IMG/VR virus record: IMGVR_UViG_2880412407_000002
Origin: a virus
Lineage: Duplodnaviria; Heunggongvirae; Uroviricota; Caudoviricetes
Strand: one strand, 5' to 3'
Length of the DNA stretch: 64,000 nucleotides
The notes below the pieces were generated by a model. That model made no database searches, was not told the origin of the DNA, and was given only the letters and a program-made list of their open reading frames with translations. Of this stretch, positions 5,359 to 54,523 are shown one piece after another (position 1 is the first letter of the stretch; each line of letters starts with the position of its first letter). Both the position numbers and the translations under genes were made by a program.

Positions 5359-5511
5359 TCAGTCAGTGTTTCTGGCTAACCAGCGATGCGCGCCAGTTTC
5401 GGTTTTAAACGTTTTGCTTTTGGTATACGTTATCGCGGTGAACGTACCGTCCTGGTTGGGAAACACGCCGCATACCAGAGATTCACTGTTGCCAAGATCG
5501 ATAGTATCCAT
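5359..5511 (-). CDS. YdfA-like small protein
   Basis: 50-aa ORF MDTIDLGNSESLVCGVFPNQDGTFTA...; homolog at 51654-51809. Confidence 0.5.
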   Translation of the reverse strand: MDTIDLGNSESLVCGVFPNQDGTFTAITYTKSKTFKTETGAHRWLARNTD

Positions 5512-5689
5512 GTTGACCTCATTTCCCCTTAACGCCGGGGGAGCGGAACAAAAACCTGCTGCATAGTTAAAGTTGAACCCTGCCGTCATGTTCTTACGCC
5601 TCGGGCTGGCTACTTAACCCCTGACCACTGCCTGGTAACTCGAAGTATTGCCCTGCGTTCTGTGGGGCGGGGTGGGTGGTATGCTGGAA

Positions 5690-5826: not shown

Positions 5827-6303
5827 TTAAGTTCCAGTTTTTGTGATGTTCTGGCTTTTCCGTTCAGATTCTAGAGCTTTCAGATACTTACCCACTTTCA
5901 TTTCCATCGCTGCTATGTAGGCGCGAACATCGTGGTCAACCCAATCTGGTTCTGTAGCATTTCCAGATAACAGGAAAGCTACAATCGCTCTTATTTCATC
6001 AGAGGCTGCTTGATAAAGGTTGTTTATATCTAAAAGTTCACTTTTTGTATCTGAATTGGTGGGGGTTGGTATGGGGTATTCGTTAAGCCCCCAATGCTCT
6101 GGACCAACAACATCAGAAAAGAAACGCCATAATTCTGGAAGTTTATCTTTACTTATAGAGCCTTTCTTAATCCAGTCATAAATTGATGGTGGTTGGACTT
6201 TGAAGTGGCGTGCGACCTCCGCCTTTGATTTGACGGATCCCGATGCGATTTTTTTGTTAATGGCCTGCTCTATCGCTCGGCCTAAGTCTTTACCACTAAG
6301 CAT
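5827..6303 (-). CDS. racR: RacR-like prophage repressor (HTH)
   Basis: 158-aa ORF divergent from Cro-like and YdaT-like genes; recalled as matching RacR. Confidence 0.65.
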   Translation of the reverse strand: MLSGKDLGRAIEQAINKKIASGSVKSKAEVARHFKVQPPSIYDWIKKGSISKDKLPELWRFFSDVVGPEHWGLNEYPIPTPTNSDTKSELLDINNLYQAASDEIRAIVAFLLSGNATEPDWVDHDVRAYIAAMEMKVGKYLKALESERKSQNITKTGT

Positions 6304-6723: not shown

Positions 6724-6745
6724 AACATCAAGAGGCAAATGATTC

Positions 6746-7171
6746 ATGAAAATCAAGCATGAACACATCCGCATGGCGATGAATGCCTGGGCGCGTCCTG
6801 ATGGCGAAAAAGTTCCAGCAGCTGGAATAACCCAGGCTTATTTTGAGTTGGGTATGACGTTTCCTGAACTGTATGACGATAGCCATCCGGAAGCCTTGGC
6901 TCGCAATACCCAGAAAATTTTCCGCTGGGTAGAGAAAGACACCCCTGATGCAGTTGAAAAAATTCAGACGTTGTTACCAGCGATCGAAAAGGCAATGCCA
7001 CCTTTGCTGGTGGCCAGAATGCGCAGCCACAGTTCAGCTTATTTTCGGGAGCTGGTGGAGACGCGGGAGCGACTGGTGAGAGACGCTGATGATTTTGTCG
7101 CAGTGGCAATCGCCGGTTTCAATCAGATGAACCGTGGTGGCCCGGCAGGAAATGCTGTGGCAGTTCATTGA
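6746..7171 (+). CDS. ydaT: YdaT-like protein
   Basis: 141-aa ORF MKIKHEHIRMAMNAWARPDGEKV...; paralog at 53358-53783. Confidence 0.6.
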   Translation: MKIKHEHIRMAMNAWARPDGEKVPAAGITQAYFELGMTFPELYDDSHPEALARNTQKIFRWVEKDTPDAVEKIQTLLPAIEKAMPPLLVARMRSHSSAYFRELVETRERLVRDADDFVAVAIAGFNQMNRGGPAGNAVAVH

Positions 7172-11519: not shown

Positions 11520-11984
11520 ACTGGCCTGAAGCATTTGCAATTACAGGCGTTGCTATGGCTATCGCTTTTTTAGTATATGTTATTTGTCGGTGAGGGTAAA
11601 AACGTTCGCCGGGATTAACACCAAAGGAGGGAATATGTCGGATGATATATCACTGGCAATGGAAGGTGCGCTGGCTGTTGTTGCTGTTGTGGGCGTTTAC
11701 TGCCTGGTTGTGTTTTTGATGGATCGACTAGGGAACTGAATTCATTACGATATGGGAATTCCCATATCGGGTAAAAACGGTTTGCGGTAAAGCGAGAGTT
11801 AAGTAGAATTGCTGCGGGTGCTTGAGGCTGTCTGCCTCGGGCATGCCACCGTAAGGCAGACAGAGAAAAGCCCCAGTTAACATTACGCGTCCTGCAAGAC
11901 GCTTAACATTAATCTGAGGCCCAATCTATGCTTCACAAACGTAGGTTAGCCTCTTACGTGCCGAAAGGCAAGGAGAAGCAGGCT

Positions 11985-12140
11985 ATGAAGCAGCAAAAGG
12001 CGATGTTAATCGCCCTGATCGTCATCTGTTTAACCGTCATAGTGACGGCACTGGTAACGAGGAAAGACCTCTGCGAGGTACGAGTCCGAACCGGCCAGAC
12101 GGAGGTCGCTGTCTTCACAGCTTACGAACCTGAGGAGTAA
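11985..12140 (+). CDS. hok: Hok-family type I toxin; mok-like in-frame upstream extension from 11928
   Basis: 51 aa MKQQKAMLIALIVICLTVIVTALVTRKDLCEVRVRTGQTEVAVFTAYEPEE; structured leader upstream. Confidence 0.75.
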   Translation: MKQQKAMLIALIVICLTVIVTALVTRKDLCEVRVRTGQTEVAVFTAYEPEE

Positions 12141-50356: not shown

Positions 50357-50414
50357 AAAAAAGGGCGGCAGAGCAGTCACGGAGTAAAACTGATACCGCC
50401 AAATGTCACCAGAA
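50357..50414 (-). ncRNA. dicF: DicF sRNA
   Basis: Minus strand reads uucuggugacauuuggcgguaucaguuuuacuccgugacugcucugccgcccuuuuuu, recalled as matching E. coli DicF. Confidence 0.7.
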
Positions 50415-51809: not shown

Positions 51810-52085
51810 GTTGACCTCATTTCCCCTTAACGCCGGGTAGCGGAACAAAAACCTGCTGCATAGTTATTAAAGTTGAACCCTGCCGTCATGTTCATACGCC
51901 TCGGGCTGGCTACTTACCCCCTGACCACTGCCTGGTAACTCGAAGTATTGCCCGGCGTTCTGTGGGGCGGGGTGGGTGGTTGGTGTATGTAATCTACAAT
52001 TAAAAACTGTTTTGTGTCAACAGTTTTTAATTGTTGTTTTGGGCAAAAAAATCCCTCGAAAGAGGGAGTATGAAAATTGTTCAAC

Positions 52086-52373
52086 TCAGATAGAGAAGGG
52101 AAATTGTCGCCGAGAATGTGTCACGCTTACAATCTCAATGCTTGAAGCAGCTACTCTGTACAGGATTATGTAGTTAGGGTGGGTCACGATCTCTCTCAAT
52201 CCAGAAACCCGTTCGCTTGGTGGATATAAGTACGGATGCTCAGATAGAGGTAATACCGATGTTTCAATGCGTATTTTTAGTCTACGTGCTGCCGGTGGGT
52301 TCTCCTTGGCGATGTAAGTTATGATCTGGCGCAAATCATCGCGAGCAGACGGTAGCCATAAAATGGGTAACAT
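52086..52373 (-). CDS. Type II toxin, ParE/RelE family
   Basis: 95-aa ORF whose ATG overlaps the upstream antitoxin stop by 1 nt. Confidence 0.6.
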   Translation of the reverse strand: MLPILWLPSARDDLRQIITYIAKENPPAARRLKIRIETSVLPLSEHPYLYPPSERVSGLREIVTHPNYIILYRVAASSIEIVSVTHSRRQFPFSI

Positions 52374-52564
52374 TACTCGCTCTTGTTAGTTACAGCAATT
52401 TGAGCAATAAGATTTTCCATTTCAGCCATTACCTCGTCATGTGGAATTGCGGGGCGAGTGTCTGCAAGGCTTGACGTTACTTTAGTGCGCAACCATTCGT
52501 TGTAACTGTTTTCTTGTTCGGTAGTTTCGAATTCTGAAACTATCGGAGAAAGGGCTGTACCCAT
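52373..52564 (-). CDS. Type II antitoxin partner
   Basis: 63-aa acidic ORF immediately upstream of the toxin in an operon. Confidence 0.5.
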   Translation of the reverse strand: MGTALSPIVSEFETTEQENSYNEWLRTKVTSSLADTRPAIPHDEVMAEMENLIAQIAVTNKSE

Positions 52565-52591: not shown

Positions 52592-52993
52592 TCACGCCCG
52601 GCGGCTTTTTTGTGCCGCCAGCCACCTAGCAATGGTTTCTTCCATTGATTTTTTCTTGTCTTTGATTTCTTGAAGCATTTTTTCTTGGTCTTCCTCAGGA
52701 AACGCACTAAAAGCTTGGAGCAGTTCGCGTTGGCGAGGACCAATTTTCATCGTGTCAGGGGTGAAAATTTGCTCACACTCTTCAGGAGGCAATAAAAACC
52801 AATGCAATGGATGCCCTGAAACCTCAACCAGTTTATCCAAACTTGAGGCTTTAGGTGTAGCCTTACCGCTGACCCATTGTTGAACAGTTTGTTGTGTCAC
52901 ACCAATTCTACGGGCAAGCTCAGCCTGGCTCCATCCAGTTTCCTGAAGAAGCTTGCTGATTCTGTACATAGATACTTCTAGGGCGCTCATCAT
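52592..52993 (-). CDS. Prophage repressor (HTH_XRE, DicA/CI-like)
   Basis: 133 aa with HTH (QAELARRIGVTQQTVQQWVSG); divergent from the Cro-like gene. Confidence 0.7.
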   Translation of the reverse strand: MMSALEVSMYRISKLLQETGWSQAELARRIGVTQQTVQQWVSGKATPKASSLDKLVEVSGHPLHWFLLPPEECEQIFTPDTMKIGPRQRELLQAFSAFPEEDQEKMLQEIKDKKKSMEETIARWLAAQKSRRA

Positions 52994-53000
52994 TATTCAA

Positions 53001-53064
53001 TTTTACAGGTAAATACTGTTAAAAGCACCACAATAAAAAACTGTTGATTGCATACAGTTTTTTA
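53001..53064. promoter_or_regulatory. Operator-like inverted repeats in the divergent promoter region
   Basis: TTTACAGgtaaataCTGTTAAA and AAAAACTGTtgattgcatACAGTTTTT between the repressor and Cro-like genes. Confidence 0.4.
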
Positions 53065-53101
53065 TTGTAGGCTTTGCTTATAGTTTTTAGAGGAGGGCAA
53101 A

Positions 53102-53374
53102 ATGCTAGATAGCACTCGCGAAAAAATTAGGCAGAAATACACTCAGGCTGAAATAGGTCGTTATATGGGGGTCGCTCAACAGACTGTTTGGCAATGGTTT
53201 AGCTTTGGCGTTCCCCCAAAGCAGGTAATTCCGTTATGCCAACTAATGAAGTGGGAAGTTACCCCGCATGAAATCCGCCCAGATATTTATCCTAACCCAA
53301 CCGACGGTTTACCTGTTGGATGTAAGGTTAACACATCAAATGCGCCGGAGTTGATTCATGAAAATCAAGCATGA
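53102..53374 (+). CDS. Cro-like HTH protein
   Basis: 90-aa ORF with HTH (RYMGVAQQTVWQW). Confidence 0.6.
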   Translation: MLDSTREKIRQKYTQAEIGRYMGVAQQTVWQWFSFGVPPKQVIPLCQLMKWEVTPHEIRPDIYPNPTDGLPVGCKVNTSNAPELIHENQA

Positions 53375-53783
53375 ACACATCCGCATGGCGATGAATGCCT
53401 GGGCGCATCCGGACGGCGAAAAAGTACCGGCTGCGAAAATTACCAAAGCGTATTTCGAGCTGGGAATGACGTTCCCGGAACTGTATGACGACAGCCATCC
53501 GGAAGCCATGGCTCGCAATACTCAGAAAATTTTCCGCTGGGTGGAGAAAGACACTCCTGATGCGGTTAAAAAAATTCAGGCGTTGTTACCAGCGATCGAA
53601 AAAGCGATGCCGCCTCCGCTGGTGGCCCGAATGCGCAGCCACAGTTCCGCTTATTTTCGGGAGTTGGTAGAGACGAAGGAACGGCTGGTGAAAGATATTG
53701 ATGATTTCGTTGCATCAGCGATCGTTCTGTTCGATCAGATGAATCGTGGTGGCCCGGCAGGAAACACTCTGGCTGTGCATTAA
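53358..53783 (+). CDS. ydaT: YdaT-like protein
   Basis: 141 aa, about 85 percent identical to 6746-7171. Confidence 0.6.
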   Translation: MKIKHEHIRMAMNAWAHPDGEKVPAAKITKAYFELGMTFPELYDDSHPEAMARNTQKIFRWVEKDTPDAVKKIQALLPAIEKAMPPPLVARMRSHSSAYFRELVETKERLVKDIDDFVASAIVLFDQMNRGGPAGNTLAVH

Positions 53784-53796
53784 TTGGGTAATAAAT

Positions 53797-54306
53797 ATGA
53801 GTAATGACAAAAAATTGACACTGAGCGTTTACGAAAACAGTCCGCACATCTGGCGTGGCGGTTTATCTGATGTGGAGCTGGCAGAGTGGTTGATACATAA
53901 AGCTAATGCGCTGCTCTGGCGTTTGTCAGCCAGAGAACAGCGCAAGGAAACCAGAATAAAGCTGGCTGATGCAGAAGCGTGTGCCGGGCTTATTGAGGAT
54001 TATACAAATCTTGGTATTTCTTCAGCAGAGAGTGATCCCATTCAGCCTCTGAGCAGGGAGTCAATCCAGCACGCTGGTTGTATGGCACATCTTGTAACTG
54101 CTCGTCAACATGAGGTGGGTATTGGATCACTTCCGGTGGGATATTCGCTGATTCCAGAGCTGGTTGAAGCAAGAAAATCAGTTCAGAAAAAGAGAGATGA
54201 CGCACTTCAATTATTGAGAGAGCACTATGGCGCGATACCAGAATGCGAACAGCATCGATACCCTGAAGGTTATGAATGGATGCAGTCTCTTTTTGAAGTT
54301 CGCTAA
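53797..54306 (+). CDS. Hypothetical protein
   Basis: 169-aa ORF from ATG 53797. Confidence 0.4.
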   Translation: MSNDKKLTLSVYENSPHIWRGGLSDVELAEWLIHKANALLWRLSAREQRKETRIKLADAEACAGLIEDYTNLGISSAESDPIQPLSRESIQHAGCMAHLVTARQHEVGIGSLPVGYSLIPELVEARKSVQKKRDDALQLLREHYGAIPECEQHRYPEGYEWMQSLFEVR

Positions 54307-54523
54307 TCAATATGTCGAGACGAAGGTATGTTTCGGCGCGCAGCCAGGCTCTGTAATCCGGGAGCATTTCGGGGCTGTTACACCAGCGGTTTGTTGCTGC
54401 AACATTTAATACATGAGCCTGATAAAGGCTTTTCAAAAAATACATGTCGAACCTCCTCTGGTTCTGTCGATTGGGAACCACAGATTATATCCGGAGGAAG
54501 GTTCGGCACCAGATGAGGTAGCC

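Follow-up and report, generated by a model that had tools for sequence, protein, structure and literature searches.

A paaR1-paaA1-parE1-type toxin–antitoxin locus in the immunity region of a tandem lambdoid prophage

Gene content and flanking signals of the locus

The 64,000-nucleotide stretch of DNA analysed here (the window) contains a pair of lambdoid prophages in tandem, and the toxin–antitoxin (TA) locus lies in the second of them. Three genes on the minus strand, encoding a regulator, an antitoxin and a toxin, are accompanied by two palindromic elements and by the divergent genes ydaS and ydaT (Table 1). The initial annotation had described a 63-aa and a 95-aa ORF that overlap by one base and follow the repressor gene on the same strand, a layout that the ORF list and the sequence bear out. 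Specifically, base 52373 is common to the antitoxin stop codon TAA (52375-52373) and the toxin ATG (52373-52371), giving TAATG, a Shine-Dalgarno sequence GAGGAG lies 5' of the antitoxin ATG, and a gap of 27 nt separates the regulator gene from the antitoxin gene. Scanned on the minus strand, this gap showed neither a terminator-like nor a promoter-like site.

Table 1. Features of the TA locus and its surroundings in prophage 2 (positions in the window).
Feature	Position	Strand	Detail
PL/OL-type element	51991-52039	-	promoter scan 10/12; 39-bp palindrome 51996-52034
Terminator-like hairpin TCCCTC-TTTC-GAGGGA + T7	52052-52067	-	terminator scan and fold
Toxin ORF	52086-52373	-	95 aa, ATG start
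Antitoxin ORF	52373-52564	-	63 aa, ATG start
HTH regulator gene, cI-like	52592-52993	-	133 aa; ORF list and Pfam HTH_3
OR-type divergent promoter/operator region	52994-53101	.	108 bp; 39-bp palindrome 53030-53068
ydaS, Cro analogue	53102-53374	+	Pfam YdaS_toxin 38.8 bits (GA 30); PHROG 35 transcriptional repressor
YdaT operator TTGATTCATGAAAATCAA, OM type	53351-53368	+	0 mismatches, ydaS/ydaT junction
ydaT, CII analogue	53358-53783	+	Pfam YdaT_toxin; PHROG 163 CII-like activator

The antitoxin belongs to the PaaA family. Pfam PaaA2 (PF21217; 68.3 bits, GA 27) is the sole domain found in the protein, and the same Pfam profile search detected no DNA-binding domain. Over 53 aa it is 72% identical to PaaA2 (PDB 3ZBE/5CW7; E 1.4e-20), and it matches the NCBIfam 'RelB-family antitoxin' equivalog NF050103 with 92.1 bits (cut-off 50); RefSeq, where its accession is WP_000536233.1, calls it 'RelB family' or 'hypothetical'. 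The toxin, in turn, is a member of the ParE family by its match to Pfam ParE_toxin (PF05016; 63.5 bits, GA 23) and by its 67% identity to ParE2 (PDB 5CW7 chain B; E 3e-36). The earlier assignment of the pair to a ParE/RelE-type TA family was therefore right, and these Pfam and PDB matches refine it to a PaaA antitoxin with a ParE toxin. Because the Pfam scores lie well above the cut-offs and dN/dS of the two genes between alleles is 0.06-0.27 (0.06 for the toxin against the allele of locus L004), with synonymous change saturated, the sequence marks the two ORFs as genuine genes rather than random ORFs, and both are under strong purifying selection between alleles.

The regulator carries its HTH_3 domain at the N-terminus (E 2.3e-12) and matches the NCBIfam DicA model below threshold (51.5 bits versus a cut-off of 101); RefSeq names it (WP_000986592.1) only 'helix-turn-helix domain-containing'. 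Besides being prophage 2's cI analogue, it forms part of the TA operon as its third component. By the account of Hallez 2010 given in PMC4803016 and PMC8630535, PaaR is necessary for full repression, PaaA being without a DNA-binding domain, and in the paralogous system a promoter 5' of paaR drives the regulator and the TA genes as one transcript. With the paaR gene directly upstream on the same strand, co-transcription is predicted by analogy for the window as well. The initial annotation had also suggested co-transcription with the repressor and a role in prophage stabilisation or anti-phage defence; of these, co-transcription and stabilisation are on record for the paralogous system. It had not recognised that the regulator is integral to the system.

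Two palindromes of 39 bp each, 79% identical and 1034 bp apart, flank the operon. The one past the toxin gene contains a promoter, TTGACA-18-TAGATT, directed leftward to ydfA/ydfB/dicB, and the other lies in the 108-bp intergenic region between the regulator gene and ydaS. In that region, a PRM-like -10 element TAAAAT (53005-53000) is separated by 6 nt from the paaR ATG, where no Shine-Dalgarno sequence is present, and a PR-like element TTGATT (53044-53049) is directed into ydaS. A generic sigma-70 scan of the 108 bp reported neither PRM nor PR, and both were placed by hand, by analogy with the mapped paaR2 promoter, and so remain predictions. In line with this placement, paaR2 in the O55:H7 locus L003 reads GATAAT-6 nt-ATG, the same -10-to-ATG geometry as in the window, and its transcript begins at the ATG according to 5' RACE, so that the message is leaderless like that of lambda cI (PMC8630535). 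A PL933P/OL element is located downstream of paaR2-paaA2-parE2 (PMC8630535), and the two palindromes of the window correspond to the OR and PL933P/OL of paa2. Between the toxin gene and the leftward promoter, the terminator-like hairpin starts 19 nt past the toxin stop codon; the hairpin is short and the fold z-score of the 57-nt stretch is only -1.57, and together with its T7 it is probably the end of the operon.

On the other side of the regulator gene, ydaS has been described as the Cro analogue (PMC8630535), and the window YdaT is 86% identical to the CP-933P-type YdaT. The YdaT operator was searched for with the motif and position defined in PMC9986795 and PMC8630535, TTGATT-N6-AATCAA at the ydaS/ydaT junction. 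Allowing up to 2 mismatches, six matches were found in the window versus 4.4 expected, which is not above chance; the site in Table 1 is the only match with 0 mismatches, and this perfect site alone, found where it was predicted, carries meaning. As a YdaT-activated PRE-type operon start has been mapped at the ydaS/ydaT junction in CP-933P (PMC8630535), 53351-53368 is, by analogy, the expected site of a PRE-type alternative operon promoter. PMC8630535 describes the same setting: a lambdoid immunity region in which ydaS-ydaT run divergently and operators lie on both flanks. In the OR/OL palindromes, the leaderless-type -10 spacing and the position of the YdaT operator, the window thus keeps the structure of the regulatory scheme known from paa2.

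Relation to the O157:H7 paralogues and to other systems

Four loci (L002-L005) were fetched, translated and compared with the window proteins. In the O157:H7 locus L002, all five immunity-region proteins (regulator, antitoxin, toxin, YdaS and YdaT) are 100% identical to those of the window. EDL933 carries, at 3,409,095-3,410,002, genes with the same RefSeq accessions as the window allele (WP_000986592.1, WP_000536233.1 and WP_001303876.1), and a search with L003 placed paa2 at 2.41 Mb of the same genome. The window-type copy of EDL933 resides in a lambdoid prophage next to serT (tRNA-Ser) and tccP2, which we take to be the CP-933M/Sp4 location. Each of the O157:H7 genomes listed has exactly two TA places, and strains such as LSU61 and AUSMDU00002545 have both alleles about 1 Mb apart. 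In the O55:H7 locus L003, ParE2 and PaaA2 are 100% identical to the PDB chains, and the regulator begins with MQKKE, the N-terminus of PaaR2 established by protein sequencing (PMC8630535). O157:H7 has been reported to contain two such systems that are paralogues of each other, with paa2 located in CP-933P and its homologue in CP-933M (PMC8630535). Since two paralogues were reported, two places were found and one of these is paa2, we infer from the observed sequence identity that the window locus is the second published paralogue, paaR1-paaA1-parE1 of CP-933M; naming in reviews is inconsistent, with forms such as 'paaR1-paaA1-parE3' (PMC3141249).

The paired genes are thus a genuine and correct observation and an exact copy of a three-gene system that was already known. 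The initial annotation had rightly seen a TA pair but had not recognised in it a named and characterised three-component system. The closest known system is paaR1-paaA1-parE1 of EDL933 CP-933M (Hallez 2010, as cited in PMC4803016 and PMC8630535), and the EDL933 locus has the gene order and neighbours of the window. The locus itself shows no difference from CP-933M paa1, whereas the surroundings do, the window copy lying in an O121:H19-like STEC background and in the second of two tandem prophages. Over the 1.5 kb of the region, O121:H19 STEC chromosomes match the window at 100% identity. The locus has little weight as a discovery, being an identical copy of a system named in 2010, whose paralogue has been crystallised and whose prophage-switch wiring was studied in 2021; its value lies partly in annotation fixes, namely the RefSeq names of antitoxin and regulator and the parE gene of phage Evi, and partly in its context among other addiction or killer modules of the prophage.

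Compared with paaR2-paaA2-parE2 of CP-933P/Sp12, the window has the same three genes, the divergent ydaS-ydaT, a downstream PL/OL element, the YdaT operator and leaderless-type spacing, and the C-terminal region of PaaR2 is conserved in its regulator. The toxin is 67% and the antitoxin 70-72% identical to those of paa2, whereas the HTH domain of the regulator, YdaS and the operators are unrelated, which means a different immunity specificity. Lambda cI-rexA-rexB offers a likeness of another kind, with accessory genes between the repressor and PL/OL on the PRM transcript of the repressor, as is predicted by analogy for the window transcript; RexA and RexB, however, are unrelated proteins that form an abortive-infection system and not a type II TA system. 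RK2 parDE shares with the window the ParE-fold toxin and, on the model of paa2, the phenotype of plasmid or element addiction. In contrast to RK2 parDE, the window antitoxin is PaaA without a ribbon-helix-helix domain, transcription is controlled by a separate regulator, and gyrase is only a putative target for this ParE subfamily.

When the window is compared with the paa2 and O104:H4 loci, the DNA is homologous from downstream of the toxin gene, across both TA genes, as far as about 52657 or 52722 in the 3' end of the regulator gene; homology restarts near the ydaS/ydaT junction (53284 or 53347). Three heteroimmune regulators (52592-52993 in the window, 4491-4862 in L003 and 4456-4956 in L005) have only their C-terminal ~48 aa in common, with the shared tail ELLQxFxAFPxED…ARWLAAQKxRRA, and the N-terminal HTH parts of the three types are unrelated; over these 48 aa the window regulator matches PaaR2 at 30 positions and the O104:H4 regulator at 33. 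Because the regulators share only this tail, the immunity-specific cassette comprises the HTH domain, the operators and cro, and because homology breaks inside the regulator gene, the TA pair is tied to the C-terminal domain of the regulator and not to an immunity type. From its position, we presume that this domain serves oligomerisation. The TA pair and the repressor C-terminal domain could then form the travelling unit, a guard that survives or channels swaps of the immunity cassette and that may double as a Rex-like exclusion system, a proposal that we put forward tentatively and consider rather doubtful.

Against locus L004 (4001-4479), the neighbouring genes at 52086-52564 have uneven pS values, 0.63 for the toxin and 0.15 for the antitoxin. 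Such uneven synonymous divergence may reflect a recombination breakpoint that lies between the two genes or inside one of them, in spite of the reported cognate specificity: the antitoxins of the two paralogous systems do not cross-neutralise (PMC4803016).

Proposed operation and competing readings

We consider it highly probable that the locus is a paaR1-paaA1-parE1 type II TA operon in a CP-933M-like immunity region and that it acts as paa2 does. Sequence identity, gene order and landmarks are read from the window itself, and the steps that follow are carried over from paaR2-paaA2-parE2. Regulator, antitoxin and toxin would be made from one leftward mRNA that starts at a PRM-type promoter, probably as a leaderless regulator message, with a second, PRE-type start at the ydaS/ydaT junction activated by YdaT (CII), and transcription would stop at the hairpin-T7 3' of parE. 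The regulator would occupy the palindromic OR and OL in competition with YdaS (Cro), and because the two would compete at operators flanking the operon, TA expression would be wired into the bistable switch of the prophage. Disordered and protease-labile, PaaA would wrap around ParE and neutralise it; upon loss or replacement of the locus, ClpXP/ClpAP would degrade PaaA, and the freed ParE would act on the nucleoid, by way of a putative molecular target, to cause SOS induction and cell death. Such addiction, or post-segregational killing (PSK), would stabilise the immunity region of the prophage. PSK, the dependence on ClpXP, SOS induction, the leaderless start and the footprints are taken mostly from paa2, whose regulator DNA-binding domain and operators differ from those of the window. 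For the paralogue, the published function is addiction by PSK that stabilises the immunity region, and stabilisation of a plasmid has been demonstrated (PMC8630535, PMC4803016). The O157:H7 toxins inhibit growth, are neutralised by their cognate PaaA only and mediate PSK (PMC4803016, PMC8630535), and ParE2 colocalises with the nucleoid and induces SOS (PMC8630535). On the other hand, Jurenas 2021 detected no ParE2 activity in any steady-state condition, and the biological role is still a proposal (PMC8630535).

What the toxin does and what the pair is for could be read in other ways. RefSeq labels the toxin 'RelE/ParE family' (WP_001303876.1), and its sole NCBIfam match is the RelE_StbE subfamily TIGR02385, which would allow for a RelE-type, ribosome-dependent mRNA interferase instead of a ParE-type nucleoid or topoisomerase poison. 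That match, however, is marginal (28.4 bits versus a cut-off of 27.9), whereas the Pfam ParE_toxin score is strong, identity to the crystallised ParE2 is 67%, and nucleoid colocalisation and SOS induction are on record for the latter; mRNase activity of the RelE type is, because of this weak score beside strong ParE evidence, very unlikely. The position of the pair raises a different question, as it is that of rexA-rexB in lambda, between cI and PL (PMC9986795). The pair, predicted by analogy to be driven by the lysogenic promoter, might mainly be an anti-phage abortive-infection or exclusion module in which ParE is freed when a phage halts host transcription or degrades PaaA, and the authors of the work on the paralogue left its role open (PMC8630535). 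This reading we regard as unlikely, though less so than the mRNA interferase: neither toxin nor antitoxin matched any defence model in PADLOC, where the regulator had only generic HTH matches, we found no published report of a phage-protection phenotype, and the phenotype actually demonstrated is plasmid stabilisation by PSK.

The undetectable steady-state activity of ParE2 and the cryptic state of the prophage that hosts the paralogue would also fit an inert remnant carried along in a decaying prophage. Strong purifying selection on both genes argues against this, given dN/dS of 0.06-0.27 between alleles whose synonymous change is saturated; moreover, the ORFs are intact and translationally coupled, 436 genomes carry the pair at ≥99% identity, and in the paralogue both deletions and PSK assays reveal activity. 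An inert pair is hence extremely improbable, and an addiction operon embedded in the prophage switch is the reading that we prefer.

Distribution of the module and its prophage setting

The TA pair is present in 832 of the 5426 complete E. coli genomes, the 436 at ≥99% identity being among them. Homologues of PaaA are also common beyond this species, among Alpha-, Beta- and Gammaproteobacteria. At 69 of the 80 loci outside E. coli (L007-L086), ParE lies directly downstream of PaaA, and no PaaR- or YdaT-like gene occurs in the vicinity of any of the 80; what lies upstream differs from locus to locus, for instance LepA, ChaC, a HigA-like antidote or nothing. Since no PaaR- or YdaT-like gene accompanies the pair there and the upstream neighbours vary, the three-component form resembles a two-gene module that was taken up by lambdoid immunity regions, which Jurenas et al. 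have likewise proposed (PMC8630535). PaaA-ParE pairs are widespread in Bartonella, Acidithiobacillus, Halomonas, Pseudomonas, sphingomonads and others, with antitoxins of about 60-65 aa. Phage records gave a single match to the toxin among 50,697, in Escherichia phage Evi (LR597642.1; 3501-3776 of locus L006), where an unannotated gene for a ParE homologue that shares 67% identity with the window toxin follows paaR2-like and paaA-like genes. Because just this one record matched, the available data place the module essentially in prophages.

Within the window, the tyrosine integrases of the two prophages (1-1020 and 45929-46948, both on the minus strand) are 100% identical over 339/339 aa. Identical integrases in tandem prophages point to two heteroimmune relatives that both lysogenised the host at one attachment site. 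The earlier statement that prophage 1 has no counterpart of the TA pair holds, as tblastn found one copy each of toxin, antitoxin and repressor in the window and no second. In prophage 1, a repressor of a different type (5827-6303, minus strand; 158 aa) is followed directly, after a gap of 237 bp, by a DUF1391/ydfA homologue (5359-5589). The YdaT proteins of the two prophages are 89% identical, so cross-talk between their establishment circuits is possible. The YdaT operator is perfect in prophage 2, and its counterpart at the cro/ydaT junction of prophage 1 (6739-6756) has one mismatch.

Between ydaT and the replication genes of prophage 2, a gene for an 'ECs1072 family phage-associated protein' (53990-54445, minus strand) lies on the opposite strand; it had no match in PADLOC and looks like a moron-like gene. 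Two RNA features were also found with Rfam: the DicF sRNA adjoins dicB in prophage 2 (50363-50414, minus strand), and a sok antisense RNA of the hok/sok type I TA system is present on the plus strand in each prophage (11816-11990 and 59171-59345). With DicF and sok, prophage 2 has at least three killer or addiction modules, namely paaA-parE, hok/sok and dicB/DicF, and these may help to explain the persistence of tandem cryptic prophages in STEC genomes.
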